Assembly: GCA_050331735.1 (NCBI GenBank)
Contig: JBHJGN010000015.1
Location: 1 to 64,000, forward strand
Direction of reading: 5' to 3'
Length of the DNA: 64,000 nt
From: Cyanophyceae cyanobacterium
GTDB taxonomy: Bacteria > Cyanobacteriota > Cyanobacteriia > Cyanobacteriales > JBHJGN01
In this document: positions 1-59,925 of the stretch, piece by piece
Numbering within the stretch: the first letter of the stretch is position 1
Layout: the number at the start of each line of letters is the position of its first letter
Translations under genes and position numbers: made by a program
The notes under the pieces: generated by a model
Told to the model about the DNA's origin: nothing
What the model saw: only the letters and a program-made list of their open reading frames with translations
The model's database searches: none

Positions 1-150
1 ACCATTTACCGAAAGTAGTCAGATAGTTCCCAAACTAACCAACAATTGGAGGTTCAAGGGCAAAGAGCTGCTGTGCTTCCCTTTCCCCTTTACCCCTTCC
101 CCTTTCCCCCAACTCATCAAGTCTCCTATTACTTTTTCTAACTGGTATTA
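1..150. mobile_element. MITE-like repeat, copy 1 (left end clipped by window edge)
   Basis: Near-identical to the reverse complement of 17137-17282 and similar to 10171-10316; ends in TGGTATTA; pyrimidine-rich core. Confidence 0.8.
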
Positions 151-477
151 GCTTGATGCCGATAGGGGCAGGATTGCCTAGAATCGGGTTTTCTGGCTTT
201 GCTAGCGCTGCAAAACTGACTACCAGATTAACGACAGAAAAAGCCACGGCTATCCAAGCTGCTGGCTTGCGGTAGAGATTAGCAATGAGCGTTATGGCGA
301 TCGCCACTTGCACGATACCAAGCAGATATACCCACACAGAGGCGTTGAAGGGAAGCTCGCCGTAAAAGGCGTTTTCGTAACAACCCAGCTTGACACAAAG
401 AATAGTTTGGAGACTCCCCAAAAACCAACAGCAAGACCAGCGGCAAGACGAAAGGTGACTAAATAGGCTCTTGACAT
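151..477 (-). pseudogene. DoxX-like membrane protein, frameshifted near 380-390, 3' end running into the MITE
   Basis: N-terminus MSRAYLVTFRLAAGLAVGFWGVSKLF (ORF 292..477) continues as YENAFYGELP...VYLLGIVQVAIAITLIANLYRKPAAW in another frame (ORF 35..421); SD GAGG before ATG 477. Confidence 0.55.
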
Positions 478-521
478 AATTAACCTCTAGTACTCTTTCC
501 TTCCTAGGGTAGATGCAAAAC

Positions 522-538
522 TTGAGGAACTCGTGAAG
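522..538 (-). promoter_or_regulatory. Direct-repeat operator copy 1 (CTTCACGAGTTCCTCAA), 10 nt upstream of TACCCT
   Basis: Motif and spacing shared by five promoters. Confidence 0.7.
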
Positions 539-721
539 CTACCGATGGAACAGACAAAGAGTGTTGCTAAATTTTGATGTCTGCTTTGCACATCCGATGA
601 GGTTTCTAGAGTTAGTGGTTAGTCGTTAGTAGTTGCAATAGCTAGCGACCAACCCTTCGCGATTGAGCGAAGTAAACGACTGTTAACGCCGCTTCGCTCC
701 CGATCCCAACAGTCTTTCTGG

Positions 722-1171
722 CTACTCTACCTTGATTTTGACAACTTTGCGCTGGGCATCCTCTATCTTAGGCAGAGTCAGCGTGAGAATGCCGTTTTTG
801 AACTCAGACTTGACCTGCTCTTGCTGAACGGGGACGGGGAGAGGAATTCGACGTTGGAATTGACCGTAGTTAAATTCCGAGCGGAAAACTCCTCCTTCTT
901 CGGTTTGTTTCTCCTCGCGGTGTTCTCCGGCGATCGAAACTTCTTCGGGAGCCACCTGTACGTCTAAATCTTGGGCTTCAACACCAGGAATTTCTGCTTT
1001 GACAACGATGTTTTGGTCGGTTTCTTGAATTTCAATCGCCGGGGCCCAGATATTGCCATTGCCTGACAAGCTTTCCCAGTTGCGATCGCTCATTAGTTCT
1101 CCAAACAAACGGTCCATCTGCTGTCTTAGGTGGCTTAATTCTTGAAAGGGTTGCCAACGAACTAGTGCCAT
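722..1171 (-). CDS. Hsp20/alpha-crystallin small heat shock protein
   Basis: MALVRWQPF start with GGAGG SD; WAPAIE, AEIPGV, YGQFQRRIPLP, NGILTLTLPK motifs. Confidence 0.93.
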   Translation of the reverse strand: MALVRWQPFQELSHLRQQMDRLFGELMSDRNWESLSGNGNIWAPAIEIQETDQNIVVKAEIPGVEAQDLDVQVAPEEVSIAGEHREEKQTEEGGVFRSEFNYGQFQRRIPLPVPVQQEQVKSEFKNGILTLTLPKIEDAQRKVVKIKVE

Positions 1172-1270
1172 AGTAACCTCCAATCCGATTGATGAACGTT
1201 GAGTAACGCTATCAGGTCGCCGTTGATAGCTTCCTGAAGCGCCCTCTACTTTTAAAAGTAAACAAACATT

Positions 1271-1287
1271 TTGAGGAACTTGTGAAG
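1271..1287 (-). promoter_or_regulatory. Direct-repeat operator copy 2 (CTTCACAAGTTCCTCAA), 10 nt upstream of TACTTT
   Basis: Shared motif upstream of hsp20. Confidence 0.75.
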
Positions 1288-1336
1288 GAGTTTGGTCTTC
1301 GTCCACAGTCCCTTTGTTTCCTGTCGGACCGCTAGC

Positions 1337-1858
1337 TCACTGATGAATCACAACGGGCGTTCCTACCGATGTCCGTTGAAAGAGCTGTTGAGCTGCTTCT
1401 ACAGGTACGTTGATGCAGCCGTGACTGACAGGGGTGCCAAACTGATTGTGCCAATAGGCTCCGTGAATGGCATAACCCCGGTGATAGTACATCACGCTGG
1501 GAACGTTAGGAACATCGTAGTCGGCTCCCCGCATTCTGTCTTGAGGAAGTTTCCGCTGAATGGTAAATACCCTTATTGGAGTTGGGGTTGATGGTTTGCC
1601 AGTAGACACGGTGATTGTCTGGCTCGTAGTATTTCCCTGCCAAGCCGTCAACTGTTGGTCGGAGAGATCGACCTCAAGCCAGCGTTGCTGGGAGTTTTTG
1701 AGGGTTTCGATGCGTTGAGCGATCGCCTCCGGCAGTTCCGCTAAAACTGGCAGGGATAGCCCCGTTGCCATTGCTGTTATCGCTAGGGTTATCCCTGCCA
1801 AGGACGTCATCGAACCAGGCAACCACTGTCCAAAAGCTTTTTTTTCATGACCGCTCAC
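1337..1858 (-). CDS. L,D-transpeptidase (YkuD family), secreted
   Basis: Hydrophobic N-terminus; EVDLSDQQL, VSTGK..PTP, YAIHGAYWH...SHGCIN catalytic motif. Confidence 0.92.
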   Translation of the reverse strand: MSGHEKKAFGQWLPGSMTSLAGITLAITAMATGLSLPVLAELPEAIAQRIETLKNSQQRWLEVDLSDQQLTAWQGNTTSQTITVSTGKPSTPTPIRVFTIQRKLPQDRMRGADYDVPNVPSVMYYHRGYAIHGAYWHNQFGTPVSHGCINVPVEAAQQLFQRTSVGTPVVIHQ

Positions 1859-1904
1859 CTCTACTTTGAAGTGGACTTATCTACCTCTAAGCTAGCTAAA
1901 GAGT

Positions 1905-1921
1905 TTGAGAAACTCGTGAAG
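1905..1921 (-). promoter_or_regulatory. Direct-repeat operator copy 3 (CTTCACGAGTTTCTCAA), 10 nt upstream of TAGCTT
   Basis: Shared motif upstream of the L,D-transpeptidase gene. Confidence 0.75.
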
Positions 1922-1982
1922 AGGAGCGATCGCGCTTCCATTACCAGCGCCGCTCTTGACTTTCTCCTTTAATATAAGATTC

Positions 1983-2633
1983 CTACAAACTTGCCTCTTG
2001 CAAGCTCTGACTCAGATTGGCATCCTGAAAATTAGCTAATCTTAAATCAGCTTCCGTTAAATTAGTGCCGCTCAAATTTGCTCCGATCAAAATCGCTTCG
2101 TACAGGCTCGCCCTAGACAAATTTGCCCCGGCTAAATTGGCCCCGCTTAAATCGGTTCCGCTCAAGTCGGCTGCTAACAAGCTCGCGCTACTCAGATTCG
2201 CTCCCCGCAAATTGCTTTCCGTTAGGGTTGTGTTTAAAACGGCTCCACTGAAATTGGCTCCCCTGAGCGAGGCTCTGGTTAAATTAGAGCCACTCAAGTT
2301 CGCTCCGCTGAGATTACCGCCGTTGAGAGCAACTTCTGTTAAATTGGCCTGCCCCAGTTTTGCTCCGCCCAAATTAGCTCCGATCAAATCGGCTCCACTG
2401 AGGTTGGCGTCGGTTAAGGTAGCGGCACTGAGATTAGCGCCAATCAGGTTAGCTTCTCTGAGATTGGCCCGGGTTAAGTCAGCTCCACTCAAGTTAGCAC
2501 CAACTAGATTAGCTCCCTGAAGATTGATTTCTCGAAGAGCAGCACGATACAGGCAAACTCCATTGAGATTGGCTCCGGCAAAATTTCTGGCTCCTGAAGC
2601 ATACTGTGCGAGTAACTGGTTGGCATCGCTCAT
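1983..2633 (-). CDS. Pentapeptide repeat protein
   Basis: LLAQYASGARNF N-terminus followed by tandem A(N/D)LxG repeats. Confidence 0.92.
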   Translation of the reverse strand: MSDANQLLAQYASGARNFAGANLNGVCLYRAALREINLQGANLVGANLSGADLTRANLREANLIGANLSAATLTDANLSGADLIGANLGGAKLGQANLTEVALNGGNLSGANLSGSNLTRASLRGANFSGAVLNTTLTESNLRGANLSSASLLAADLSGTDLSGANLAGANLSRASLYEAILIGANLSGTNLTEADLRLANFQDANLSQSLQEASL

Positions 2634-3181
2634 TTTCTTACTCCAACAAAGTTGCTAAGGTCAACGGGAAGCACATCCGGCATTATTGCTCCTTCAAGCT
2701 TTGCGCCCCGCAGGTTAGCGTGGTCTAAATTAGCTCCCTGTAGGTTGGCATTGCGGAGATCGGCCCCATAAAGATTTACTCCCTGTAAATCGGCCTCTAT
2801 CAGGTTAGCTTCATTCAGGTTAGCTCCGGCCAAGATAGCTCCCCGCAAACAGGCTCGTGATAAATTGGCTCTAATCAAGATTGTCCCGGTCAGGATAGCT
2901 TCGCTCAGATTCGCGCAGCGAAGATTGGCTGCTCGTAAATCAGCACCGCTTAGATTCGCCACAATCAGCGTGGCTCCCTCAAAATTGGCTGCTGCCATGT
3001 TAGCAACGACGAGAAAAGCACCGCTTAAATTGCTTCCTTGGCAGTGACTGCGAGATAAGTCAGCGCGAATTAGGTTGATACCGCTTAACTTCGCTTGCGC
3101 TAACTTGGCTTCTGCTAGCTCTGCTCTACTAAAGTCTCGTTCTCCGGCTGCATACTGTTTCAACAGAGCTTGTGCATCCAT
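2630..3181 (-). CDS. Pentapeptide repeat protein
   Basis: MDAQALLKQYAAGERDF start with GGAGGAG SD; A(N/D)Lxx repeats; MPD cap; 4-bp overlap with the next gene. Confidence 0.92.
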   Translation of the reverse strand: MDAQALLKQYAAGERDFSRAELAEAKLAQAKLSGINLIRADLSRSHCQGSNLSGAFLVVANMAAANFEGATLIVANLSGADLRAANLRCANLSEAILTGTILIRANLSRACLRGAILAGANLNEANLIEADLQGVNLYGADLRNANLQGANLDHANLRGAKLEGAIMPDVLPVDLSNFVGVRK

Positions 3182-3225
3182 ACGCTCCTCCCTGTCTCTG
3201 TCTGACGCTAGATTAGCGCTCAATT

Positions 3226-3242
3226 GTGGGAAAGTTGTGAGG
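3226..3242 (-). promoter_or_regulatory. Direct-repeat operator copy 4 (CCTCACAACTTTCCCAC), 10 nt upstream of TAATCT
   Basis: More diverged copy with identical spacing, upstream of the pentapeptide operon. Confidence 0.6.
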
Positions 3243-3339
3243 CTGAAGGAGTCAAAAGTTGTTCGGTAGGATTTGAGTGAGTGGTTAGTCGCCAGAAAAT
3301 TCATAGATAGCGACTACCTACTAACTATTTGCAGCTTCC

Positions 3340-3356
3340 CTTCACAAGTTTCTCAA
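3340..3356 (+). promoter_or_regulatory. Direct-repeat operator copy 5 (CTTCACAAGTTTCTCAA), 10 nt upstream of GACCAT
   Basis: Shared motif on the + strand upstream of devB. Confidence 0.7.
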
Positions 3357-3390
3357 TTTTGTGTTCGACCATAGATGTAGAGCAAGTTGA

Positions 3391-4632
3391 GTGACGCAGG
3401 TAATCAGCATGGAAGTGACTCAGTACCAAAAAGCGCCTCCAGAAGCGACCCCCTCTCGCCCGAAAAGAAAGAGGGTGAAGCCTTGGGTCATTGCGATCGC
3501 CGTTGGGACTGCTGTAAGTGCAGGAGCTACTTACTGGTTCTATATTCAGTCTCAAACTCCTCCTCCCCCTGCGACAACCAGCGTTGTTGAGATTACCTCT
3601 GTCACAGCGCTAGGACGCTTGGAGCCGCAAGGAGAAGTGATCAAACTCTCGGTGGCTAACGCTCAAGATAGCCGCGTTAACCAACTGCTGGTGGAAGAAG
3701 GCGATCGCGTCCCAGCCGGAGAGATCATTGCCGTTCTGCAAGGGTTAGACCAGAAACAGGCAGCCCTGGAGGAAGCCCAAAAAAACGTGGCAATTTACCG
3801 AGCAAAGCTCGCTCAGATTGCAGCGGGAGAAGCGAAGGAGGCTGAAATTACTGCCCAAAGAGCCAATATTGCCCGTTTTGAAGCCGAGGTAAGAACGGCA
3901 ACCCTCGAACGGCAAGCTCAAATTTCTGACGCTCAAGCCGAACTGAGCAATGCCACCACCAACTATCGGCGCTATCAAGCTCTACACGATGAAGGAGCCG
4001 TGACCACGGCAGAACTCGACGACAGACGGGAAACCTATACTAGAGCACAAGCCAGACTCAATGAGGCTCAAGCCCGCCTCGACCAAACGGTGTCTACTCT
4101 GCAAGAGCAGATTGCCCAAGAAAGAGCCATGCTCGCCAAGCTACAGGAAGTGCGTCCGGTCGATCTGCAAGAAGCGCAAGCTGAGCTAGACTATGCGATC
4201 GCCCAGGTAAAGCGCATTGAGGAGGAACTGGATGACTACTACGTGAGAGTTCCTGTCGCTGGGCAAATTCTTAAAATCAATACTCACGTTGGCGAACAGG
4301 TCAACACCAGCGAGGGCATTGTTGAGCTGGGACGCACCGAACAAATGTATGCGATCGCGGAAGTTTATGAAACCGATATTAGTCAAGTCGCAACTGGGCA
4401 GCGAGCCATCGTCACGAGCGAACACGGCGGCTTTGATGGCAGCTTACAGGGAACCGTAGAGCACATTGGCTTGCAGATCAAGAAACAAGATGTATTGGAT
4501 GCCGATCCGGCTGCTGATAAAGATGCCCGCGTTGTTGAAGTAAAGGTCCGTCTCGATCCTCAAGATAGCCACAGAGTGGCGGGATTAACAAATTTACAGG
4601 TAAGGGTGCGGATTGATGTGGGGAGTGAGTAA
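3391..4632 (+). CDS. devB: DevB-family membrane fusion protein of an ABC exporter
   Basis: N-terminal TM, VTALGRLEPQGEVI, coiled coil, AEVYETDI, DARVVEVKVRL, LTNLQV motifs. Confidence 0.92.
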   Translation: MTQVISMEVTQYQKAPPEATPSRPKRKRVKPWVIAIAVGTAVSAGATYWFYIQSQTPPPPATTSVVEITSVTALGRLEPQGEVIKLSVANAQDSRVNQLLVEEGDRVPAGEIIAVLQGLDQKQAALEEAQKNVAIYRAKLAQIAAGEAKEAEITAQRANIARFEAEVRTATLERQAQISDAQAELSNATTNYRRYQALHDEGAVTTAELDDRRETYTRAQARLNEAQARLDQTVSTLQEQIAQERAMLAKLQEVRPVDLQEAQAELDYAIAQVKRIEEELDDYYVRVPVAGQILKINTHVGEQVNTSEGIVELGRTEQMYAIAEVYETDISQVATGQRAIVTSEHGGFDGSLQGTVEHIGLQIKKQDVLDADPAADKDARVVEVKVRLDPQDSHRVAGLTNLQVRVRIDVGSE

Positions 4633-5814
4633 ATGTTCTTCAAACCTCTACTTAAAAGATTAACCAAAGAACCTCCTTTGGGTTGGGCACAACTCAGTCA
4701 TCAGAAAGTTCGTTTGCTGGTTGCGTTATCAGGAATTGCCTTTGCCGATATCCTCATTTTTATGCAGCTTGGCTTTTACAACAGCCTCTTTGGCGGCGTC
4801 ACTCGTCTCCACGAACATTTCAACGGTGATTTATATCTCGTCAGCGCGCGGGCTAAATTCCTCGATGATGGTCAAACATTTTCTCGTCGCCATCTCTATC
4901 AAGCGGCTGCGGTAGAAGGAGTGGCTGCCGCTAGCCCCTTCTACTATTCCCACGCTGGCTGGGTCAATCCCTGGAATAAAAAAGTGACCAATGTCGCAAT
5001 TTTAGCTTTTGATCCCGCTCGTCCGATCTTAAATTTGCCTGATGTTAATCAACAGCTAGAGAACATCAAGCTACCGGATCGAGTGCTAGTCGATCGCCAA
5101 GCGAGACCGGATTTAGGGCCCATTGCGGAAACGTTTGACCGAGGCGAGCCAATCACCACAGAAATATCAGGACGGAGAGTGAGCGTTAGCGGGATGTTTA
5201 CGTTTGGGAGTACGCTGTTTGTGGAAGGATACTTGATCACCAGCGATTGGAATTATCTGCGACTATATGGTGCAGACAGTATTGAGAACCTGAAGGTCGG
5301 CGTACTCAAGGTCAAGCCCGATGCAACTGTCACTACAGTTAAAGCAAAAGTGCAGGCGACTTTACCGAATGTTGTTTCGGTGATGACGCATGAAGAACTG
5401 ATCGCCGCTGAGAAAGAATTTTGGGATCAAAACCATCCTGCCGGAACCATCTTTAACTTTGGTGTAGCGATGGGCTTTGTCGTGGGAGTTGTGGTTGTCT
5501 ATCAAGTCTTATATGCTGATGTCAACGATCATCTGGCAGAATATGCCACTCTCAAAGCAATGGGATATCCAGACACAAGCTTGTTGGCGGTAGTTTTTCA
5601 AGAAGCGCTTATTCTCGCCATTCTCGGCTTTGTTCCTGGATTTGGAGTATCGATTGGTATGTATAGCTTGCTAGCAAGTTTGACCAAGATGCCACTGGCG
5701 ATGCAGTCGGGTGTTGCTTTGAAAGTATTTTTCTTGACGGTATCAATGTGTTTGGCTTCCGGGGCGATCGCCATTCGCAAACTTCACTCTGCCGATCCCG
5801 CAGATGTATTTTAG
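4633..5814 (+). CDS. devC: DevC-family ABC transporter permease
   Basis: GIAFADILIFMQLGF, YQVLYADVNDHLAEYATLKAMGY, C-terminal ADPADVF. Confidence 0.93.
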   Translation: MFFKPLLKRLTKEPPLGWAQLSHQKVRLLVALSGIAFADILIFMQLGFYNSLFGGVTRLHEHFNGDLYLVSARAKFLDDGQTFSRRHLYQAAAVEGVAAASPFYYSHAGWVNPWNKKVTNVAILAFDPARPILNLPDVNQQLENIKLPDRVLVDRQARPDLGPIAETFDRGEPITTEISGRRVSVSGMFTFGSTLFVEGYLITSDWNYLRLYGADSIENLKVGVLKVKPDATVTTVKAKVQATLPNVVSVMTHEELIAAEKEFWDQNHPAGTIFNFGVAMGFVVGVVVVYQVLYADVNDHLAEYATLKAMGYPDTSLLAVVFQEALILAILGFVPGFGVSIGMYSLLASLTKMPLAMQSGVALKVFFLTVSMCLASGAIAIRKLHSADPADVF

Positions 5815-5867
5815 GTTTCAGGTAGCTGTTTATAGGCAATTGTAAATATCGTAGCTCTGGAGAAAAC

Positions 5868-6632
5868 ATGATGAAACAGTGGTATGAAGAATTATTTGAA
5901 AACTATGCCCTGAAATACGATCGCGAGAGTTTTGTTCAAGGAACAATTGGAGAATGTGATTTTATCGAACAAGAAATAAACTATGATAAAAACACCCGAA
6001 TTTTAGATATTGGCTGTGGAACGGGCAGACATTCGATTGAACTAGCAAAAAGAGGATATAAGGTCACGGGAATCGACCTATCAGAAGCTCAGTTGGCCAG
6101 AGCCAAAGCAAAGGCATCTGCACAAAATTTGCCAGTTGGCTTTGAACAACATGACGCGAGAAACCTTGCTTTTTGTGCTGAATTCGATTTGGCGATCATG
6201 CTGTGCGAGGGAGCTTTTCCCTTAATGGAAACCGACGATATGAACTTTCAAATTCTTTGCAATGCCAGCACTGCTCTGGAGGCACAAGGAAAATTAATTT
6301 TTACCACCTTAAACGGATTATTTCCTTTGTTTCATTCGGTGAAAGACTTTCTCGCTTCGGCAAGTCAAGAAGGAAATGCCGAATATAGTAATCATTCATT
6401 TGATTTAATGACGTTTCGCGATCACAGTACGACAAAGATCGAGGACGATTTTGGCAATAAAAAAGAACTGAAATGTAACGAAAGGTATTATGTTCCATCC
6501 GAAATAACCTGGCTGTTGAAAACGCTCAATTATAAAACTATTGATATATTTGGCGCAAAGCTCGGTGCTTTTAGTCGCAATGATAAATTGACGACTGAAG
6601 ATTATGAGATGTTAGTTATAGCAGAGAAATAA
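5868..6632 (+). CDS. Class I SAM-dependent methyltransferase (AT-rich, likely acquired)
   Basis: ILDIGCGTGRH motif I, VTGIDLS motif II. Confidence 0.9.
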   Translation: MMKQWYEELFENYALKYDRESFVQGTIGECDFIEQEINYDKNTRILDIGCGTGRHSIELAKRGYKVTGIDLSEAQLARAKAKASAQNLPVGFEQHDARNLAFCAEFDLAIMLCEGAFPLMETDDMNFQILCNASTALEAQGKLIFTTLNGLFPLFHSVKDFLASASQEGNAEYSNHSFDLMTFRDHSTTKIEDDFGNKKELKCNERYYVPSEITWLLKTLNYKTIDIFGAKLGAFSRNDKLTTEDYEMLVIAEK

Positions 6633-6658
6633 CACAAGGCAAAATAAGCTATCAAGTA

Positions 6659-6711
6659 GGCGATCGCCATCTGTAAACTTCAATCAGCCGCTCCTGTGGA
6701 AGTATTTTAGG
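6659..6711 (+). repeat. Diverged duplicate of the devC 3' end (5763-5815), starting at HIP1
   Basis: 43/53 identical by hand alignment; encodes AIAICKLQSAAPVEVF* versus AIAIRKLHSADPADVF*. Confidence 0.85.
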
Positions 6712-6767
6712 AGTTGGTTCATCAAACTCTCCCCTAACTACTACCCACTACCTACTCACTATTCACT

Positions 6768-7514
6768 ATGTCCTCAACTGTCGTTACAATTAATCATCTC
6801 AATTATGCTTTTGGCAAAGGTGAATTACGCAAATCGGTGCTGTTCGATATCGATTTAGAGATCTATGCCGGGGAAATTGTGATTATGACGGGCCCTTCCG
6901 GGAGCGGAAAAACGACGCTATTGACGCTCATTGGAGGGTTACGATCGGTACAGTCAGGTAGCGTTAACATCTTAGGACAAGAACTCTATGGTGCGCTCAA
7001 ACATGAATTAGTTCAAGTTCGCCATCAGATCGGGTTTATCTTTCAATCCCATAACTTACTCTCTTGTTTGACCGCAGAACAAAACGTGCGCATGGCGTTA
7101 AGACTGCATCCCGAGATTCCCTTTGCCCAACGAAGCCTGATAACGACAAACATCTTAACAGCAGTGGGTTTAGGAGAGCGAGCCAGTTTTTATCCTCAGC
7201 ACCTTTCAGGAGGTCAACAGCAGCGAGTAGCGATCGCTCGCGCGTTGGTCAGTCAGCCTAAGCTGGTGCTGGCAGATGAACCGACAGCCGCTCTAGACAG
7301 CAGATCTGGTCGGGATGTGGTGGAGATCATGCAGCACTTAGCTAAAGAGCAGGGCAGCACCATTTTGCTGGTCACCCACGACAACCGCATTCTAGATATT
7401 GCTGACCGAATTGTGCATCTGGAGGATGGTCGTTTGGCAAGAGATACAGCACTCGTAAGCATTGACGCTCATCCCGCTAACCCTCCGGAGATTAGGGAGC
7501 ATCAGCAGGCCTGA
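6768..7514 (+). CDS. devA: DevA-family ABC ATPase (C-terminus supplied by an IS end)
   Basis: Walker A GPSGSGKTT, LSGGQQQR, ADEPT, VTHDNR. Confidence 0.93.
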   Translation: MSSTVVTINHLNYAFGKGELRKSVLFDIDLEIYAGEIVIMTGPSGSGKTTLLTLIGGLRSVQSGSVNILGQELYGALKHELVQVRHQIGFIFQSHNLLSCLTAEQNVRMALRLHPEIPFAQRSLITTNILTAVGLGERASFYPQHLSGGQQQRVAIARALVSQPKLVLADEPTAALDSRSGRDVVEIMQHLAKEQGSTILLVTHDNRILDIADRIVHLEDGRLARDTALVSIDAHPANPPEIREHQQA

Positions 7515-7716: not shown

Positions 7717-8120
7717 ATGCAAGACCAATTCAACAAGCTTAGACACTGCTCATACCTCATTCATTTTCATTGGGTCGTCACCTTGAGGAAATTTTTGCTG
7801 CAACGCTTGAGAAAGGGGAATGCAGCTTGGTTGAGTTCAATGGCGAAGCTGATCACCTGCACGTTCTGATGTCGGTCAATCCCAAGGTGCAGCCATCGAA
7901 GCTCATCAACAATCTGAAAACCGTTTCATCAAGACTGATTCGCAAAGAGTTTGCTGAGCACCTAAATCGCGTTTATCGAGGCAAGCCTATCCTCTGGAGC
8001 CGTACCTATTGCTTGTTGGCTTGTGGTGGAGCGCCGCTAGCGGTTATTCGGCAATATATTGAGCAGCAGGCCGAGATTGATGACGGCAGCTCAAGCTGCC
8101 TGCGCTACACCACCCCCTAA
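7717..8120 (+). pseudogene. tnpA: IS200/IS605 tnpA (Y1 transposase) with internal deletion/frameshift near 7782
   Basis: MQDQFNKLRHCSYLIHFHWVVT, then shifts frame to LEEIF...EADHLHVL (HuH)...WSRTY...YIEQQ. Confidence 0.85.
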
Positions 8121-8475: not shown

Positions 8476-9201
8476 ATGAAAATGCAAAAAATAGTCGGAA
8501 TTAGCGTTGCGACTCTTGGCATAACGGCAATGACATCGGGAGTGCCAGTTTTATCTCAAGAAGAGCAAGACCCGCTCAATCCGGTAGAAGAATCGCCCGA
8601 ATCAGTAGAGCAGAATCTTGATACTGCTGGAGAGAATATCGAGGAAGCCGAGCAAAACCTCGAACAGGCTGGAGAAGCGGCGGTAGATAGCTTGGAATCT
8701 ACTGGGGAAGCAGCGGTCGAGGGAGTTGAAGCGGCTGGCGAAGCAACGGCGGAAAGCGCTAGAGAAACAGCACAAGAAGTCGAAGCGGCTGGCGAAGCAG
8801 CCGAGCAGAGAATTCAAACATCTACTGAAGAAGCTCAGCAGCAGATTGAATCGGCAGCAGAAGCAGCCCAGGCAGAAGTGGCAGCTACTATGGAAGGCAT
8901 CGAAGAACAGGCTAACTGGGGCTGGTTAGGGTTAGCTGGCTTACTAGGTTTATTTGGTTTAGCTGGGTTGAAGGGTCGCGATAAGGACAGAGTAGAGTAC
9001 CATAATCAGCCCGGTACGCCTGAATATCGTGGGTCAGCGACGGGTGCAATCGACCAGACCACCGCATCTGGATACACCAACCCGTCAGCAACAACCGACT
9101 ACAATCAGCCTGGGACCGTTAACCGTCAAGAACATCCTAACCGAGATATTGTGGTTGAAAAGAGAGTCGACCGTCCGACCGATTACAGAGACCCTAGCTA
9201 A
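8476..9201 (+). CDS. Secreted acidic Ala/Glu-rich protein with WGxxGxxG-CTERM domain
   Basis: Signal peptide, E(A/Q)AGEAA repeats, WGWLGLAGLLGLFGLAG. Confidence 0.85.
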   Translation: MKMQKIVGISVATLGITAMTSGVPVLSQEEQDPLNPVEESPESVEQNLDTAGENIEEAEQNLEQAGEAAVDSLESTGEAAVEGVEAAGEATAESARETAQEVEAAGEAAEQRIQTSTEEAQQQIESAAEAAQAEVAATMEGIEEQANWGWLGLAGLLGLFGLAGLKGRDKDRVEYHNQPGTPEYRGSATGAIDQTTASGYTNPSATTDYNQPGTVNRQEHPNRDIVVEKRVDRPTDYRDPS

Positions 9202-29201: not shown

Positions 29202-29993
29202 ATGTGCCGTCTCCTAAGCTACCTCGGTCCATCGATTCCGCTTGACAAACTACTCTACAAACCCGAACACTCTCTGATCGTCCAAAGCTATCAACCCCGC
29301 GAAATGTCCTCTGGGGTTGCCAATGCCGATGGATTTGGTGTGGGTTGGTATCATGCTGACCAGGAAACTCCCCCCTACACCTACAGAAACCTTCTGCCTA
29401 TCTGGAGCGATCTGAATCTGCCTCAATTGAGCCGGTACGTAGAATCACACTGTGTTTTGTCTTATGTCCGCAGCGCTACGGCTGGTCAAGCCGTCGATCT
29501 CAGTAACTGTCAGCCCTTTACCGACAAAAATCTCCTCTTTATTCATAACGGGGCTATCAGTAATTTCCGCAAAACAATGTATCGACCAATACGTGACTCC
29601 CTCAGCGACGAGACCTACCAGTTAATTAACGGGACGACCGACTCCGAGCATATCCTGGCTCTCCTGCTCGATCACTTAAACACATCGGACTCCCTCGCTC
29701 AAGCAGTTGCCAATACTCTAGGTCAGCTTCGACGCCTAGCCCAGCAAGCCCAGGTTTCCTTGTCTGCAAATCTGGTGATTAGCGATGGCAAGCAGTTAGT
29801 CGCTTCCCGCTACGCTTACCAAACCCCATCGCCAACGCTTTACTGGTTAAGAGATGACCCCCTTTATCCTGATGCGGTGATGGTTGCTTCTGAACCTCTA
29901 TTTGACGGAAACTGGAATAGTTTTCCAGAACACGCCCTTGTTAGTGTGGGAGAAGATCTTGAACTACACCTCAACCCGGTTGACGAAGGATGA
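29202..29993 (+). CDS. egtC: Ergothioneine biosynthesis Ntn amidohydrolase EgtC
   Basis: MCRLL N-terminal Cys, NADGFGVGWY, VRSAT, HNG, GTTDSEH; adjacent to egtB. Confidence 0.9.
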   Translation: MCRLLSYLGPSIPLDKLLYKPEHSLIVQSYQPREMSSGVANADGFGVGWYHADQETPPYTYRNLLPIWSDLNLPQLSRYVESHCVLSYVRSATAGQAVDLSNCQPFTDKNLLFIHNGAISNFRKTMYRPIRDSLSDETYQLINGTTDSEHILALLLDHLNTSDSLAQAVANTLGQLRRLAQQAQVSLSANLVISDGKQLVASRYAYQTPSPTLYWLRDDPLYPDAVMVASEPLFDGNWNSFPEHALVSVGEDLELHLNPVDEG

Positions 29994-31203
29994 GCTTCTT
30001 GAGGCACTCCATCAGTGTCGTGCCAGTACCTTAGAGCTATTCGCCGATATAGACCTCCAGACTTTCTGTCAGCAAGCCCATGCAGATTTCAGTCCGGTGG
30101 GATGGCATTTAGGACATATTGCTTTTACCGAGTCCTACTGGATATTGGAGCGCTGCGCGGGACAGCCCAACGCTTTTCCTCACTATCAACAGCTCTTTGC
30201 CGCTGATGGGCTACCCAAAGCAGAGCGACAAAATTTGCCCTCCCCAATAGAAATCCAAGCGTACTTAGAGGCTGTCAGAGCTGAAGTGACTCGCTATCTC
30301 AAATCATCCTCCCTTGAAGAGCGCCTGTGGCGCTGGCTGATTCAGCACGAAAGTCAGCACAGCGAAACGATCGCCTTTATTTTACAGCTCCTGCGGTGGA
30401 GACAGTCTGGATACGCCTCTCTGATTTCACCGGCCCCTTCCTCCCCATCTCCAACGGCAGAAATGATTTATATTCCCGCCGGGAACGCAGAAGTGGGCAG
30501 CAACGCCATTGATGCTTTAGATAATGAACGCCCCGCCTATCGTATTTACCTAGAGCCCTACTGGATTGATCGCTATCCGGTGACTTGTGCTCAGTACCGA
30601 GAGTTTATGAATGCGGGAGGGTATCAGAACCGTCGCTGGTGGTCTCAAGCAGGCTGGCAATGGCTGCAAGAGCATCCGGTCTCTCAACCGCTCTACTGGT
30701 GTGAGGCACCGGATTGGGAGCATCATCCGGTTTGTGGCGTTAGTTGGTATGAGGCGGAAGCCTATGCTCGCTTCGTTGGCAAGCGATTGCCCACCGAAGC
30801 AGAATGGGAACGGGCCGCCGCGGGCAGCTCAAGACGCTATCCTTGGGGCCATCAACTACCCGACGCCAAGCGCTGTAACTTCAATGCCCTCGTAGGACAC
30901 ACAACTCCAGTGAGTGCCTATCCAGATGGTCAGAGCGCTGAGGGCTGTTACGATCTGTTAGGAAACGTCTGGGAGTGGACGGCTTCGTGGTTCGCAGCCT
31001 ACGCTGGCTTTAAGAGTTACCCCTATCAAGGATATTCTCAAGCCTATTTCGACAATCAGCACCGCGCACTGCGGGGAGGTAGCTGGGCGACTCGTCCGTG
31101 GGCGTTACGGGCTAGCTTCCGCAACTGGTATCATCCGGGTGTACGACAAATCCTCGCCGGATTTCGCTGTGCGAGGAACTCAACTGGCCTCCCAGAAGAC
31201 TGA
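29959..31203 (+). CDS. egtB: Ergothioneine biosynthesis sulfoxide synthase EgtB (DinB + FGE-like); start uncertain
   Basis: SPVGWHLGH, QHESQHSE metal motif, RLPTEAEWE, GNVWEW, RGGSW, GFRCA. Confidence 0.88.
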   Translation: MNYTSTRLTKDELLEALHQCRASTLELFADIDLQTFCQQAHADFSPVGWHLGHIAFTESYWILERCAGQPNAFPHYQQLFAADGLPKAERQNLPSPIEIQAYLEAVRAEVTRYLKSSSLEERLWRWLIQHESQHSETIAFILQLLRWRQSGYASLISPAPSSPSPTAEMIYIPAGNAEVGSNAIDALDNERPAYRIYLEPYWIDRYPVTCAQYREFMNAGGYQNRRWWSQAGWQWLQEHPVSQPLYWCEAPDWEHHPVCGVSWYEAEAYARFVGKRLPTEAEWERAAAGSSRRYPWGHQLPDAKRCNFNALVGHTTPVSAYPDGQSAEGCYDLLGNVWEWTASWFAAYAGFKSYPYQGYSQAYFDNQHRALRGGSWATRPWALRASFRNWYHPGVRQILAGFRCARNSTGLPED

Positions 31204-31319: not shown

Positions 31320-34300
31320 ATGCCGCAACTCCCGAGCACTGCTCGCGCTCTTGAGCAGATTCTAGACCGCTCTGCGATCGCCGTTGCCCCGGAAACCCCC
31401 CTAGCAGAAGCGATCGCTCTTTTGAGTCAGCCAGCCCATCGTCAAGATAGTGCACCCGTAAGGGCCGTTTTGGGGGTGAGGAAGGGTCGGTTTGTTGGCC
31501 TGCTCACTCAGCAAACTGCCCTTCAGCTCGCTACCACCCATAACGTCCAGGAGCTTACAGTAGCAGACGGCCTCACTCAGCCTCTCACTGCACAAGCTTC
31601 TGAAGTCACCGATATGGCAGCAGTGCAGCAACTGTTCGAGCAGCACCACCTCGAACAGTTGCCTATTCTTGGTGACAACAACGCGGTTTTAGGACTCGTG
31701 ACGCTTGCTAGCTTAAACCAAGGTCTAAACGCCAAGTGCAGGCAACTGACTGCTAGCCAGAACTCCCCTGATGGCAGACATCAGCCCCAAGATAGCGAAG
31801 CTCGGTTTCAAGAAATTGCTCATACGATTCGTCAGTTTTTCTTTGTCCGTTCGGCAGCGACCGGGCAGTATATTTATGTGAGTCCTGCTTATGAAACAAT
31901 TTGGGGACGAACCTGTGAAAGTCTCTATCGCGAGCCCAACTCCTGGCTAGAGGCCGTTTATCCAGAAGATCTTCCGCTCGTGCTGACTTCCCTCACCGAG
32001 CAACTAGCTGGTATTAGCGTCACGCGGGAGTATCGTATCATTCAGCCAAACGGCAATCTGCGCTGGGTCTTCGCTCAAATCAATCCGGTTAAAGATGAAG
32101 CGGGCCATGTCGTCAGATTTATCGGCGTTGCGGAAGATATCACCGAGCGCAAACAAGCCGAAGAAGCGCTGCGACAGAATCAACTACGGCTCCAGCAGCT
32201 CTCCACTTCTGTTCCGGCTTTTCTCTACACCGTGGTGCAGCGGGTAGAGGGGTCGTTGCAGTTCGAGTACGTCAGTTCAGAAGTCGAAACCATCTACGAA
32301 ATTGCCCCAGAACGCGCTCTGCAAGATGCGAACTTGATTTATCAACAGATCTTTCCCGCAGACCGCAAACTATTTTTTGAACGGGTTCGGCAAACGGTTC
32401 AGATGCTCGCCCCGTTTCGTCACGAATGGCAAATTGTTACTCCATCAGGCCAGGGCAAATGGATCCAGGCAGCGGCCCAAACCGAACGCCGCTCTGACGG
32501 CTCAGTAGCGTGGCACGGCGTGATGCTCGATGTTAGCGATCGCAAACAAGCAGAAGCCGCCCTTCAGCAAAGTGAGGCCACCCTCCGTAGTTTCTTCAAT
32601 AGTTCTCCCTTGATGATGGGGGTGGTCGAAGTGCTCGACCACAATATCCGACACATTACCGACAATGCTGCCACCGCAGAATTATTCGGTCTCACTCCTC
32701 CCCAGATGCACCACCGCTTAGCCAGTGAACTGGGGATGTCATCCCAGTACATCGAACTCTGGCTGCACCACTATCGCGAGAGTGGGCAGACCGGAAAACC
32801 AACTCAGTTTGAATACCTTCACGCCGCTGAATCCGACTACTGGCTCTCTGCTACAGTGGCTCCCGTTGACGGCGCAGCCGAGCAAAATCGCTTTGCCTAC
32901 ATCGTGGAAGACATTACCCGGCGCAAGCAGGCGGAAATGGAACTGCAACAGACTTACCAGCGCTTGCAGTTTCATATTGAGAACACGCCGCTGGCGGTGA
33001 TCGAGTGGGACCGTGAGTTCCGAGTACAGCGCTGGTCACCTCAAGCAGCCGAGATGTTTGGCTGGCAGGCCGAGGAAGTGGTGGGCAAGCACTGGTCTGA
33101 CTGGCGGTTTGTCTCTGAAGCGGATTTGGAAGCAGTCACCCTATCAGCGCAACGATTGCTCAACGGTGGCGACCCCCGGAATTTTAGCTGCAACCGGAAC
33201 TATACCCGCTCTGGAGCGCTTGTTTACTGCGAGTGGTACAACTCCGCCCTCCACGATGAGGCGGGGGAGGTGGTTTCGATTCTCTCCTTGGTGCAAAATG
33301 CCACTGTCCGCCATCAGGCAGAGAGCCGGCTGCACGAGCGCGAGCAGTTTTTACGCTCTATCTATAACGGAGTCGAGCAGGCCATTTTTGTCGTTGACGT
33401 GACTCCCGCCCGGAACTTCCGTTACGCTGACTGGAACCCAGCGGCGGCTGGAGCAATTGGTAAGAGGGCTGCGGAAATCGCCGATAAAACCTTTGAGGAG
33501 GTGTTAGAGCCAAAACTAGCGGCTTTAGCGCGGGATCGGTTTACGTCCTGCCTGCGCAGCGGAAATACCCTCGTGCAGGAAGATTACCTCGACGTAGCCG
33601 GAGGAACCTGGTGGCTACATACGCTGACTCCGTTACGCGACGGCCAAGGAGAGATCTATCGGATCGTCGGTACGGCAAGTAACATAACCGAGCGCAAACA
33701 CATCGAGCAAGAGCGCGATCGCCTGCTTCAGCGCGTCGAGAAACACAACCAAATTTTAGAAAGCTGCGTTGAGGAACGGACGGCGAAGCTAACACAGATC
33801 AACAGACAACTAGAGCAAGAAATTAGTGATCGCCAGCAGGCCGAGATGGCCCTGCGGGACAGCGAGGAGAGATATCGCCTGATCTTTAACCAAGCCGCAG
33901 TGGGCATTGCTCAAACGACAGTAGAGGGTCGGTATCTCAAGGTTAATCACAAGCTGACTGAAATTTTGGGGTATTCCGCAGCGGAACTGTACCAAAATGT
34001 TACGACTTTTGAGATCACCCACCCCGATGACCGCGCCATTTCCTACGAGTACATGCATCGGATTGTGACCGGGGAGCTCGAATCTTACTCGTTAGAGAAG
34101 CGCTACCTGCGCAAAGATGGCTTGCCAATTTGGGTCCAAATCTTTATTACGCTGCTGCGCGACAGCGCCGGGAACCCGCAGTACTTTATCAAGGTAATTG
34201 AAGACATCAGTGCTCGCAAGCAAACCGAGCAGGCGCTCAGCTTGAGCGAGCGCAAGTTTCGAGGAGCCTTCGACACGATCGCGGTGGGCATGGCTATTGT

Positions 34301-35774
34301 AGCCATCACGGGAGGTTTTGTAGAGGTTAATGCGGCCCTGTGCCAGATGCTGGGGTACTCCGAAACCGAGTTACTGGGTTTATCATTTGCGGAAATTACT
34401 CATCCAGAAGACCACAACACCGACCAAGATTTTTGGGAGCAACTGATGACTGGAGCCATCCCTACCTATCAAGCAGAAAAACGCTATCTCCGCCAAGATG
34501 GACAGGCGGTGTGGGGATGGCTCAGTATTTCTCTCATTCACTCTACCGGTCAACCGCTGTTTTTAATTGCTCAGATTCAGGATATTACTGAGCGCAAACG
34601 CTCTGAAGCAGTTCTGCATCAAAAGCTTGAGCAGGAGCAACTCACCACGGCAGTGGCCCAACATATTCGCACCTCTCTCGATCTTGACCAGATCCTCAAA
34701 ACCGCTGTGCAGGAAGTGCGGCAACTGCTGCAGGCCGATCGGGTATCGGTGTTTCGGGTGACTCCCGAGCGGTTTGGCCGGGTGATTGCCGAAGCCTTGA
34801 TGCCGGGACAGCCCTCAATTCTGGGGATGGAGTTTCCGGACGAACAGTTTCCCGTCGAGTACTACGACCTCTACAGCGACGGCCACGCTCGCATCGTCCC
34901 CAACGTAGCCACCGACGCCATTGCCCACTGCATCGCTGAGTTTTTGGTGGAGTTGGGGGTGCGGTCGAAACTATCGGTGCCAATTATCCAAGGGCAATCT
35001 TTATGGGGCGTGATGACGGTGCATCACTGCTCCGCCACCGAGCGCTGCTGGCAGTCTTGGGAGCTAGAGCTCATCGAGGGACTGGCTTTACAGTTGGCGA
35101 TCGCCATTCAGCAATCGGAGCTATACCAACAGCTTCAGAACGAATTGAGCCTTAAAGAACGGTCTCTGCGCGAAAAGACGGTGCTGCTCAAAGAAGTGCA
35201 TCACCGCGTGAAGAATAACTTGCAGGTCATTTCCAGCCTGCTGTGGATGCAGTCTCAGCAGGTGCGGAACGAGCCTGCGTTGCAGTTATTCAAAGATGCC
35301 CAAAGTCGGGTACAGACCCTGGCTCTGATTCACGAACAGCTTTATCAAACTGAGGATTTAGCTCAAGTTAATTTTGGCGAGTATCTCCAAACGCTGGCGA
35401 GCAAGCTCTTCCGCTCCTACGGCATCGAGCAGCAGGCGATCGCGCTTCAGATTGAGGTGGATGCCGCCCCCCTGAGCCTAGAAGCGGCGATTCCCTGCGG
35501 CCTGATTGTTAACGAACTGGTGTCTAACTCGCTCAAGTATGCGTTTCCTGAGCAGCGAGCGGGTGCCATCTCCCTGCGGCTCCAGACCAATGCTTGCGGG
35601 CAGTTTGTGCTGAGCGTTAGCGATAACGGCGTAGGCTTGCCTCAGACCCCTCCTCAGAAATCTCTCGGGCTGATTGTGGTAGACGATCTCGTTGAACAAC
35701 TGAATGGTAGGATTGAGCTGGAGTGTAACAATGGTACCTGCTTTAGAATTGTTTTCCCCAATTCAGCGCGCTGA
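31320..35774 (+). CDS. Multi-sensor histidine kinase: CBS pair, about seven PAS, CBCR-type GAF, HisKA_2/HATPase
   Basis: Repeated DITERK PAS ends; LQADRV..LWG GAF; EVHHRVKNNLQ; NELVSNSLKYAF, DNGVG. Confidence 0.92.
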   Translation: MPQLPSTARALEQILDRSAIAVAPETPLAEAIALLSQPAHRQDSAPVRAVLGVRKGRFVGLLTQQTALQLATTHNVQELTVADGLTQPLTAQASEVTDMAAVQQLFEQHHLEQLPILGDNNAVLGLVTLASLNQGLNAKCRQLTASQNSPDGRHQPQDSEARFQEIAHTIRQFFFVRSAATGQYIYVSPAYETIWGRTCESLYREPNSWLEAVYPEDLPLVLTSLTEQLAGISVTREYRIIQPNGNLRWVFAQINPVKDEAGHVVRFIGVAEDITERKQAEEALRQNQLRLQQLSTSVPAFLYTVVQRVEGSLQFEYVSSEVETIYEIAPERALQDANLIYQQIFPADRKLFFERVRQTVQMLAPFRHEWQIVTPSGQGKWIQAAAQTERRSDGSVAWHGVMLDVSDRKQAEAALQQSEATLRSFFNSSPLMMGVVEVLDHNIRHITDNAATAELFGLTPPQMHHRLASELGMSSQYIELWLHHYRESGQTGKPTQFEYLHAAESDYWLSATVAPVDGAAEQNRFAYIVEDITRRKQAEMELQQTYQRLQFHIENTPLAVIEWDREFRVQRWSPQAAEMFGWQAEEVVGKHWSDWRFVSEADLEAVTLSAQRLLNGGDPRNFSCNRNYTRSGALVYCEWYNSALHDEAGEVVSILSLVQNATVRHQAESRLHEREQFLRSIYNGVEQAIFVVDVTPARNFRYADWNPAAAGAIGKRAAEIADKTFEEVLEPKLAALARDRFTSCLRSGNTLVQEDYLDVAGGTWWLHTLTPLRDGQGEIYRIVGTASNITERKHIEQERDRLLQRVEKHNQILESCVEERTAKLTQINRQLEQEISDRQQAEMALRDSEERYRLIFNQAAVGIAQTTVEGRYLKVNHKLTEILGYSAAELYQNVTTFEITHPDDRAISYEYMHRIVTGELESYSLEKRYLRKDGLPIWVQIFITLLRDSAGNPQYFIKVIEDISARKQTEQALSLSERKFRGAFDTIAVGMAIVAITGGFVEVNAALCQMLGYSETELLGLSFAEITHPEDHNTDQDFWEQLMTGAIPTYQAEKRYLRQDGQAVWGWLSISLIHSTGQPLFLIAQIQDITERKRSEAVLHQKLEQEQLTTAVAQHIRTSLDLDQILKTAVQEVRQLLQADRVSVFRVTPERFGRVIAEALMPGQPSILGMEFPDEQFPVEYYDLYSDGHARIVPNVATDAIAHCIAEFLVELGVRSKLSVPIIQGQSLWGVMTVHHCSATERCWQSWELELIEGLALQLAIAIQQSELYQQLQNELSLKERSLREKTVLLKEVHHRVKNNLQVISSLLWMQSQQVRNEPALQLFKDAQSRVQTLALIHEQLYQTEDLAQVNFGEYLQTLASKLFRSYGIEQQAIALQIEVDAAPLSLEAAIPCGLIVNELVSNSLKYAFPEQRAGAISLRLQTNACGQFVLSVSDNGVGLPQTPPQKSLGLIVVDDLVEQLNGRIELECNNGTCFRIVFPNSAR

Positions 35775-35784
35775 GGAGCCGTCC

Positions 35785-36870
35785 TTGACACCAACAACGA
35801 TCCTGATTGTTGAAGATGAAAGGCTAGTGGCAAGGCATCTTAAAACGGTTCTAGAGTTCATGGGCTACAATGTTTTGGCCCTGGTTGCTTCTGGAGAAGA
35901 AGCCGTTGAGCAAGCGCGCTCTTTGCAGCCAGATTTGGTTCTCATGGATATTTGGCTCGCAGGCGAACTAGACGGCATCGCCGCCGCAAAAACCATGCAG
36001 GCCCATCGCGTTCCTGTCGTTTTTCTCACCGCCTACGGCGATGAGGCCACTCTCGGACGGGCTAAGCTGACTCAGCCCTATGGCTATGTTCTGAAGCCGT
36101 TTGAGGAACGAGAACTGCGCGTCACCCTCGAAATTGCCGTGCAGCGAGCCCTAGCCGAGGAGCGTATGCGTCAGGCCCTCAAAAAAGAACAGGAACTCAG
36201 AGAACACCAGCGGCGTTTCTTTTCGATGGTTTCCCATGAATTTCGGACGCCCCTAAGCACGATCTTGATGTCCGCCCAGATTTTAGAACATACTCACGAA
36301 ATCACCAGTCAAAAGATTGCCAAGAATTTAGCTCGCATTCAAAAATCTGTTAAACGCGCTCTTCGCTTAGTCGAAGATATTTTAGCGATCAACCGGGTGG
36401 CTCACCATCAGATTCAGGTGTCGCCTCAAAAATTCGATCTCGAAAAATTTTGTCAAAGTGTTATTGCAGAAGCTCACCCGGAGACGGAGCGCCCACCCAT
36501 TACTTTGGACATGCAGTGTCAGAATCAATTTGTCTGCCTTGACAAACATCTGCTCCACTCGATCCTCATCAACCTTTGCTCCAACGCGGTTAAGTATTCT
36601 CCCGCCGACAGCCGCATCACGTTATCGGTAGACTATCAATCTCGGCTCATTTTTCTAGTGCAGGACGAGGGCATTGGCATTCCGTCAGCCGATTTATCTC
36701 AGGTGTTTGAACCTTTTCACCGAGGCAGTAACGCTCATCCTCAAACGGGCTCCGGTTTGGGGCTGACAGTTGTCAAACACTATGTTGAGCTACTGGGTGG
36801 CAACATTAGGGTCAATAGCCAAGTGGGCATCGGCACGACGTTTACGGTCACGCTGCCATTAAGGGAGTAA
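35785..36870 (+). CDS. Hybrid response regulator-histidine kinase
   Basis: ILIVEDE, LMDI, KPF receiver; SHEFRTPL; NAVKYS, DEGIG, GSGLGL. Confidence 0.92.
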   Translation: MTPTTILIVEDERLVARHLKTVLEFMGYNVLALVASGEEAVEQARSLQPDLVLMDIWLAGELDGIAAAKTMQAHRVPVVFLTAYGDEATLGRAKLTQPYGYVLKPFEERELRVTLEIAVQRALAEERMRQALKKEQELREHQRRFFSMVSHEFRTPLSTILMSAQILEHTHEITSQKIAKNLARIQKSVKRALRLVEDILAINRVAHHQIQVSPQKFDLEKFCQSVIAEAHPETERPPITLDMQCQNQFVCLDKHLLHSILINLCSNAVKYSPADSRITLSVDYQSRLIFLVQDEGIGIPSADLSQVFEPFHRGSNAHPQTGSGLGLTVVKHYVELLGGNIRVNSQVGIGTTFTVTLPLRE

Positions 36871-59922: not shown

Positions 59923-59925
59923 AGA

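Follow-up and report, generated by a model that had tools for sequence, protein, structure and literature searches.

A 17-nucleotide (nt) box was found upstream of five transcription units at the beginning of a 64,000-nt stretch of cyanobacterial DNA (C15:1–64000 of genome G000, contig JBHJGN010000015.1; "the window" denotes this whole stretch). The genome is 99.98% complete and distributed over 99 contigs. Taking all the evidence together, we consider it rather probable that the box is a class II activator site read by an RcaC-type regulator, that its regulon serves anoxia or low energy, and that a heme-PAS domain belongs to the system in many relatives. In what follows, genomes, contigs of G000, sequence loci and genome families are denoted by G, C, L and f, respectively. 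The five copies of the box in the window are:

522–538, minus strand: box 1, CTTCACGAGTTCCTCAA, with the -10 element TACCCT at 506–511
1271–1287, minus strand: box 2, CTTCACAAGTTCCTCAA, with the -10 element TACTTT at 1255–1260
1905–1921, minus strand: box 3, CTTCACGAGTTTCTCAA, with the -10 element TAGCTT at 1889–1894
3226–3242, minus strand: box 4, CCTCACAACTTTCCCAC, the weakest of the copies, with the -10 element TAATCT at 3210–3215
3340–3356, plus strand: box 5, CTTCACAAGTTTCTCAA, back to back with box 4, with the -10 element GACCAT at 3367–3372

The original prediction, which described these copies as one operator at five promoters, was exact in its positions and strands, and all five 17-mers were recovered with no mismatch. 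The gap to the -10 element is exactly 10 nt in every case, each copy faces its gene, and the direct-repeat period is 11 bp, with YTCAC at positions 2–6 and YTCAW at positions 13–17. The data support a tandem box of the OmpR/PhoB type, at a fixed distance from a -10 element and common to five units. With up to two mismatches allowed, six 17-mer matches occur in the window against 0.40 expected, a number reached in none of 100 shuffles; the sixth match (53378–53394) has no TA 10 nt downstream and was dropped. The predicted 5′ leaders of the five units measure 22–77 nt.

Genes behind the window boxes

The units preceded by the boxes are the following:

35–475, minus strand: small membrane-protein open reading frame (ORF), 146 amino acids (aa), no family match, behind box 1
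722–1171, minus strand: Hsp20 small heat-shock protein, 149 aa, behind box 2
1337–1849, minus strand: YkuD L,D-transpeptidase-domain protein, behind box 3
1983–3181, minus strand: two pentapeptide-repeat genes, 2630–3181 (183 aa) and 1983–2633 (216 aa), behind box 4
3391–7514, plus strand: DevBCA-type ATP-binding cassette exporter operon, behind box 5, with devB at 3391/3409–4632, devC at 4633–5814, an S-adenosylmethionine (SAM) methyltransferase gene at 5868–6632 and devA at 6768–7514

The names Hsp20, YkuD, pentapeptide repeats, DevB, DevC and DevA were confirmed. The label "DoxX-like" given earlier to the ORF at 35–475 was not confirmed: this ORF has no match in Pfam or NCBIfam and its L154 homolog has none in Pfam. 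Its last 40 or so codons lie inside a dispersed repeat, and the last hydrophobic segment of a 156-aa homolog is missing, so that the ORF is probably truncated. The contig starts in this repeat (window 1–150), which is about 150 nt long and has about 110 BLAST matches in the genome, many of them at the ends of contigs, and the ORF seems to have lost its end to this repeat. The ORF matched 2 of 300 other genomes. In the exporter operon, the SAM methyltransferase gene stands between devC and devA, and a second devBC operon is located near the end of C39. Other parts of the window (7770–8120, 46565–47649, 8476–9201, 29202–31203, 31320–36870 and 59077–61495) carry what we take, by eye from the translations, to be IS200/IS605 transposase pieces, a WGxxGxxG-type protein, egtC/egtB-like genes, a PAS/GAF kinase with a possible bilin Cys, and a formaldehyde-detoxification cluster.

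A genome-wide promoter element and its targets

A search matrix was built from the five window copies only, with the downstream geometry kept outside the model, so that this geometry served as a held-out test. TA occurs at exactly +11/+12 in all 13 other genomic matches of at least 24 bits, compared with a genomic TA frequency of 0.048, and the proportion falls with the score (6/9 at 20–24 bits, 5/18 at 17–20 and 7/99 at 14–17). Outside C15, TA is found at offset 10 in 21 of the 25 matches of at least 19 bits. The genome-wide motif scan proposed with the original prediction found the -10 geometry kept in the strong copies. A refined model yields 31 sites of at least 20 bits on six contigs (C5, 2; C9, 10; C15, 5; C32, 3; C39, 6; C64, 5), and the reversed or complement-only genome gives no match of at least 15 bits.

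The box is summarized by the pattern CYTCACAAGTTYCTCAW, 10 nt, TANNNT; the consensus reads C Y T C A C A A G T T Y C T C A W, followed by a T-rich 10-nt spacer and TANNNT. For comparison, 126 sites were taken from 16 other genomes chosen for their many boxes; the first genes behind them were called heuristically, and some calls skip small ORFs. YTCAC and YTCAW hold across the 31 sites of G000 and the 126 foreign sites, and the last position of the -10 element, which is absent from the search pattern, is T in 78% of the latter. That the 17-mer is a real promoter element is practically certain. Several boxes have a near-identical 10-nt spacer (C15:1287, C32:32991, C5:3935 and C64:31264), and the back-to-back pairs C5:3790/3935 and C32:32740/32991 have common flanks, as if promoter cassettes had recently been copied. 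Such copying may explain the large regulon of G000.

The strict pattern was run on 301 genomes of the phylum, G000 included, and a slightly looser one on 300 other genomes of the class. The strict pattern matches 37 of the 301 genomes, with none for the reversed control, and the looser one 81 of the 300, with a single control match. The 21 strict matches of G000 are the largest count of the sample. Because the strict box was not found in the f7, f25 and most of the f32 genomes searched, some lineages presumably use other routes.

The first genes or operons behind the boxes of G000 include hoxU-hoxY, USP-hoxE-hoxF (USP, universal stress protein), hoxW-hypA-hypB, hypF-adh, pyruvate:ferredoxin oxidoreductase (PFOR) and DHOD-like-pfk-hypD (DHOD, dihydroorotate dehydrogenase). 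Further targets are a CBS protein, a metallo-beta-lactamase-fold protein, more USPs, Hsp20s, Lon, an IF7-like protein and translation initiation factor IF-1. At the 126 foreign sites, the commonest first genes are those for USP (9), ppsA (8), Hsp20 (5), hoxW (5), PFOR (4) and pentapeptide proteins (4). No match to the reference set of G000 was found for 74 of these first genes, 52 of which were scanned against Pfam. The scan revealed pyruvate formate-lyase (PFL; two scanned, two more alike), radical-SAM activases, an AdhE-like aldehyde dehydrogenase, phosphoenolpyruvate carboxykinase, pyruvate kinase, glycogen phosphorylase, the ribosome hibernation-promoting factor HPF, alternative oxidase, protoglobin, PNPOx, a phosphoribosyltransferase and a sigma factor, along with many unrelated or unknown families.

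The envelope/proteostasis regulon first proposed for the box is not supported by this comparison: the window units account for 5 of the 31 sites, and the remaining sites, like those of the 16 genomes, precede mostly hydrogenase, fermentation and dormancy genes. The regulon is very probably an anoxic, fermentative programme. Among the window genes, those for Hsp20, the pentapeptide proteins and the exporter are recurrent members, because their families recur behind boxes in other genomes (a devB-like gene is preceded by a box in L090 and L175 as well). YkuD and the membrane ORF appear to have been recruited locally; neither is the first gene after any of the 126 boxes, which makes local recruitment of YkuD probable. 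The hox clusters, nifJ and ppsA of Nostoc sp. PCC 7120 fall together, 74-, 42- and 107-fold, on a CO2 step-down (PMC7699953, Table 2). The hox and nifJ genes are placed in one cluster in PMC4915528, and the hoxE start of Lyngbya lies 27 bp upstream (PMC2674450).

Several other loci of the regulon deserve mention. In L001 (C9:14720–23202), a second ATP synthase operon, with atpD first, lies behind a box-bearing short Hsp20 gene, and similar atpD operons follow regulator and box in L095 and L097. A gene for an IF7A-like glutamine synthetase inactivating factor stands behind a strong box (L002:6445–6843; C9:41442–41843) and connects the shut-down of nitrogen assimilation with the regulon. L005 (C39:84953–91042) has divergent boxes for Lon protease and for an animal-type heme peroxidase with calcium-binding repeats, and a RoxA-like cytochrome c pair (C39:47676) also lies behind a box. 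The IF-1 gene is under a box in L008:13361–13552 (C32), as is the HPF gene in L182, which suggests that the programme includes translational control. PFOR is split or frameshifted in L021, possibly through decay of the system or an assembly error.

The candidate regulator and its sensors

Nineteen OmpR-type winged helix-turn-helix (wHTH) matches were found in G000, and two of them are long REC-wHTH-HPt-REC proteins in the box cluster of C39. The best candidate for the binder is one of these:

C39:66747–68567: 606-aa RcaC-type regulator with the helix AVRTHIKG

Its RcaC-type architecture was confirmed with Pfam (PF00072, PF00486 and PF01627), and the phospho-accepting Asp in REC1 and in the last REC, and the HPt His of AHKLAG, are present as read from the sequence. 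This location agrees with the earlier view that the regulator is encoded outside the window. A ManR/CopR-type pair to the left of the window is not supported: the window begins at a contig end inside the repeat, whose exact overlaps are with the ends of C35 and C13, both free of boxes. Nor was C39 accepted as the contig that adjoins the window start: the shared 140 nt are dispersed repeat, 96% alike at C39 and 100% at the C35 and C13 ends.

Both synteny and co-occurrence connect this type of regulator with the box. In f6, a family that is Nostocaceae-like by inference, a hybrid regulator, followed by a single-domain REC, is repeatedly found divergent from box-USP-hoxEFU(Y-CBS-CP12-hoxH). The helix AVRTHIKG is common to the f6 hybrids and the 606-aa protein and is not that of the 767-aa paralog, the other long protein of the C39 cluster. 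Among the 300 other genomes, 62 have helix and box, 18 the helix only, 19 the box only and 201 neither, which corresponds to a box in 62 of 80 helix-positive and 19 of 220 helix-negative genomes. The association holds within four of five families (p = 0.006 in f24, 6e-5 in f20, 0.01 in f30 and 6e-5 in f26). Five of the 18 helix-only genomes were rescanned, and a one-mismatch box was found in all five, two of these within 1.6 kb of the helix; the reversed control of this rescan also matched, at two mismatches, in three of the five. Conversely, five of the eight helix-negative genomes with at least two boxes carry one-residue variants of the helix (G011, G032, G357, G433 and G472).

At the level of single loci, ten named helix-bearing loci had been retrieved on protein similarity only, and nine of them have a box no more than 5 kb away. 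Among loci of at least 8 kb, a set that includes some picked for box nearness, a box is nearby in 24 of 35 with the helix versus 3 of 22 with other helices. Seven of ten further regulator loci have a box beside the gene. The wHTH profile of the 767-aa protein did not separate the paralogs, matching in 71 of 80 genomes, and a homolog search for the regulator returned generic names only, with one automatic label "Protein RcaC". Based on these results, the group of RcaC-type regulators with the helix A[VI]RT[HQ][IM]KG is likely to bind the box. All0729/CdgKA was set aside as the Nostoc regulator, since the accessible portion of its description gives it neither wHTH nor HPt (bioRxiv 10.64898/2026.09.11.750938). 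L063 (G014) and L060 (G029) contain RcaC-type paralogs with other helices and weak box-like sites (20–24 bits) nearby in a similar layout, and are possibly diverged box–regulator pairs. Among the fetched loci, the regulator is split or frameshifted in L099 and L101 (L063, on G014:C2, is a further such locus), possibly reflecting decay or assembly errors.

The sensor most often linked to this regulator is a PAS domain of the FixL type. It lies directly before HisKA in all five fused (hybrid) regulators with listed domains, including one of 875 aa, and its best sequence matches in the Protein Data Bank (PDB) are FixL (E 6e-21) and DosP (E 1e-13). An AlphaFold model of the domain (pLDDT 79) gives the heme domains of FixL and DosP as first fold matches, with TM scores up to 0.82. 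All 24 copies with a score above 200 bits (23 hybrids and the L095 kinase) retain His and Arg at the positions of the FixL ligands; the next score is 35. We take the aligned residues to have the heme-pocket roles of FixL His200 (proximal) and Arg220 (distal). A search of the 300 genomes, in which at most 14 candidates per genome were scored and at least one copy was missed (G484), found the PAS in at least 65 genomes, of which 47 carry the helix. In at least 42 of the 80 helix-positive genomes it is encoded on the strand of the helix, downstream of it and no more than 6 kb away; the box is present in 39 of these 42. Judging from these domain matches, oxygen is probably read via a putative heme-binding PAS in the relatives.

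The orthologous kinase of G000 is organized differently:

C39:69544–74880: orthologous kinase gene, near the regulator gene and itself followed by a box and a single-domain REC

An alignment with the heme-PAS kinase of L095 covers most of this kinase, which lacks the heme-PAS segment. The N-terminus of the G000 kinase carries CBS domains, and the best match of its last GAF is RcaE (7CKV, E 2.6e-56), with the bilin Cys position kept; this RcaE-like GAF is degenerate or replaced in the orthologous kinases checked. Because the kinase has CBS domains and an RcaE-like GAF instead of a heme-PAS, its input may be adenylate charge, the light–dark transition, or both.

Proposed mechanism, alternatives and known systems

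In the mechanism that we propose, low oxygen (via the heme-PAS) or, in G000, possibly low energy charge or darkness (via CBS and GAF) would turn the kinase on. Phosphoryl groups would then flow from the kinase to the single-domain REC, the HPt and the N-terminal REC, after the RcaE-RcaF-RcaC scheme. A phosphorylated wHTH dimer of the REC-wHTH-HPt-REC-REC regulator, here the 606-aa protein, would bind the tandem box. The 17-mer would act as a class II activator site at approximately -39 to -23, with two half-sites one helical turn apart that replace the -35 element; we infer this position from the likeness to the pho box. The bound regulator would bring RNA polymerase to a promoter that has a -10 element only. 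SigE perhaps takes part; its -10 element is given as a C-rich TANNNT in PMC11368403. The predicted output comprises hydrogenase and its maturation, PFOR and other fermentation enzymes, USPs, CBS proteins and small chaperones, with the window units included.

The literature searched, in which exact box strings were also looked for and whose coverage stops short of subscription journals and figures, yielded no description of the box or its regulator. The parts are of known kinds: pho-box geometry, an Rca-type relay, a FixL-type sensor and DosR-like content. If the proposal is true, it would supply a missing link in the switch of oxygen-producing bacteria to anaerobic metabolism. Low-oxygen induction of the bidirectional hydrogenase and PFOR has so far been credited, in the accessible portions of the sources, only to global factors (cyAbrB, LexA, SigE and RpaA), mostly in Synechocystis. 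The present analysis offers a specific box, a candidate regulator and a candidate oxygen sensor, which occur in roughly one in four of the sampled genomes. It also allows regulon membership to be predicted gene by gene and provides promoters and a switch for the engineering of hydrogen production and fermentation.

A number of observations weigh against a low-oxygen switch of this kind. G000 has no FixL-type PAS (best score 43 bits versus more than 200 in the relatives; none at E 1e-35) and no protoglobin or H-NOX match, so that oxygen sensing is not universal. At first look, 33 of the 80 helix-positive genomes lacked the PAS, although G484 at least was a miss. The YkuD, DevBCA, peroxidase, Lon and IF-1 targets have no obvious anaerobic role, and the co-regulation in Nostoc 7120 came on a shift in CO2, not oxygen, in a comparison confined to expression. 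As to the regulator, the association is not significant in f6 (p = 0.11), and the within-family p values overstate it because kin are not independent. The 18 helix-positive genomes without a strict box belong here too, as do the three paralog loci with other helices and a box nearby. In G099 and G406, which have three to four boxes, no matching helix was found among the regulators fetched; G439 was outside this check. Finally, in a regulator tree built with a quick method, the helix occurs in two separate clades of 99% support, one of approximately 600-aa proteins including that of G000 and one of hybrids and their relatives, whose union is unresolved.

The same box and regulator group might instead form mainly a switch for darkness or energy charge, with CBS domains (adenylates) and bilin GAFs as the main inputs and the heme-PAS as an addition of certain lineages. 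CBS-PAS kinases do recur beside regulator or box clusters (C39 of G000, L095, L028, L017 and L019), and the G000 kinase, with its bilin Cys position kept and its heme-PAS missing, fits this alternative. The -10 boxes of G000 are C-rich, like the SigE promoters of Synechocystis described in PMC11368403. We nevertheless regard this alternative as unlikely, given that the heme-PAS is the one sensor domain kept in five of five fused regulators listed and that the RcaE-like GAF is degenerate or replaced in orthologous kinases. PFL, PFOR and hydrogenase are oxygen-sensitive enzymes, which also weighs against it.

The remaining alternatives depart further from a low-oxygen system with the RcaC-type group as binder. 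An envelope/proteostasis regulon under a two-protein system of the classical kind, with ManR, CopR or the MprA/NblR-like regulator of C48:48776–49447, would suit the Hsp20, YkuD, pentapeptide and DevBCA genes of the window, the 17 other OmpR-family wHTH matches of the genome and the CTCA half-sites, which resemble MprA/ManR-type boxes. On indirect evidence it is highly improbable, as 26 of the 31 sites lie outside the window, many at hydrogenase or fermentation genes, the contigs that bear boxes encode none of those 17 regulators, and it is the RcaC-type helix that tracks the presence of the box. There is equally little chance that the box serves an alternative sigma factor as an extended -35 region, with no activator involved. 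The first half-site, YTCACA, is one base off the sigma-70 -35 hexamer, and one site precedes a sigma factor gene (L257). However, the 20-nt gap from this hexamer to the -10 element is too long for a promoter of the sigma-70 family, both half-sites are equally conserved, and synteny and co-occurrence indicate a wHTH protein. It would also surprise us greatly if the binder were the 767-aa RcaC-type protein of the C39 cluster (GGDEF, helix TVTAHIKG), or if the box were a repressor site. The gene of the former belongs to the same cluster, and a weak divergent site (18.5 bits) is found upstream of it, yet no box occurs within 5 kb of its two closest relatives in the tree (L093 and L099). A repressor site is at odds with the fixed phase and orientation to the -10 element, which are typical of activation. 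In its favour, RcaC also represses, from differently placed boxes, according to PMC8256508.

Among known systems, the pho box is similar in geometry: it is a direct repeat with an 11-bp period that replaces the -35 element and ends about 10 nt before the -10 element. PhoB/pho box, RpaB/HLR1, ManR and CopR all share with the present box the 11-bp direct repeat in place of the -35 element, but differ in sequence, regulator architecture and targets. The ManR and CopR regulons (metal transport, with an adjacent histidine kinase–response regulator pair) are set apart by their targets and linked regulator. The HLR1 sequence given in PMC9241938 is different from the box, and a paper on the atpT promoter names HLR1/RpaB. 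For hox and nifJ, the regulators described are cyAbrB1/2, LexA, SigE, Rre34 and RpaA (PMC13421787 and PMC11368403). Neither for these nor for ChlR, which acts on low-oxygen tetrapyrrole genes, do the accessible texts name an RcaC-type regulator, a heme-PAS kinase or the box.

On the sensor side, FixL-FixJ of rhizobia and DosP of E. coli show the same order of PAS before HisKA, the sequence and fold matches, and the positions of the ligand His and distal Arg; unlike in these systems, the heme-PAS is absent from G000. The output here is not a NarL-type FixJ. It is a wHTH of the OmpR type that belongs to an HPt phosphorelay, and the parts are often fused into one polypeptide of 800–1800 aa. DosR (DevR) of Mycobacterium tuberculosis is likewise NarL-type, with a palindromic box and GAF-heme kinases, whereas the present box is a direct repeat and its linked regulator OmpR-type. 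The likeness to the DosR regulon is an analogy of content only: several USPs, a small heat-shock protein, phosphofructokinase, a cation P-type ATPase and a CBS protein (with a match to the CBS domains of Rv2626c) recur, judged against the target list in PMC4090907 (Table 3). A single PDB search with the AAA_33 kinase gave no match for this comparison.

Similar in architecture are the acclimation relays to light colour. In RcaE-RcaF-RcaC, a kinase, a single-domain REC and a multi-domain OmpR-type regulator with HPt are connected, and RcaC, once phosphorylated, acts as an activator at a promoter box (PMC8256508 and PMC5737509). The same relay parts make up RcaE-RcaF-RcaC with its L-box, RfpA-RfpC-RfpB (far-red acclimation) and the present system, in which the last GAF of the G000 kinase is RcaE-like. 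The targets differ, being hydrogenase and fermentation genes here, and most linked sensors are heme-PAS rather than bilin GAFs. The contigs with phycobiliprotein (PF00502) genes, C8, C11, C19 and C97, carry no box, so that chromatic acclimation is not the output; no separate search was made for the genes of bilin synthesis. The box presumably differs in sequence from the L-box, and an L-box pattern that may be inexact in sequence or spacing has two matches in the 301 genomes, none in G000 and neither followed by a phycocyanin gene. We see even prospects that the system is an undescribed oxygen-sensing master switch of many cyanobacteria, a counterpart of FNR, ArcA and DosR, in which a FixL-type heme-PAS kinase is wired to, and often fused with, an RcaC-type activator. 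Its chassis would swap sensors (heme-PAS, CBS and RcaE-like bilin GAF), G000 would run its anaerobic programme on cues from light and energy, and the relay of chromatic acclimation would be its sister system.

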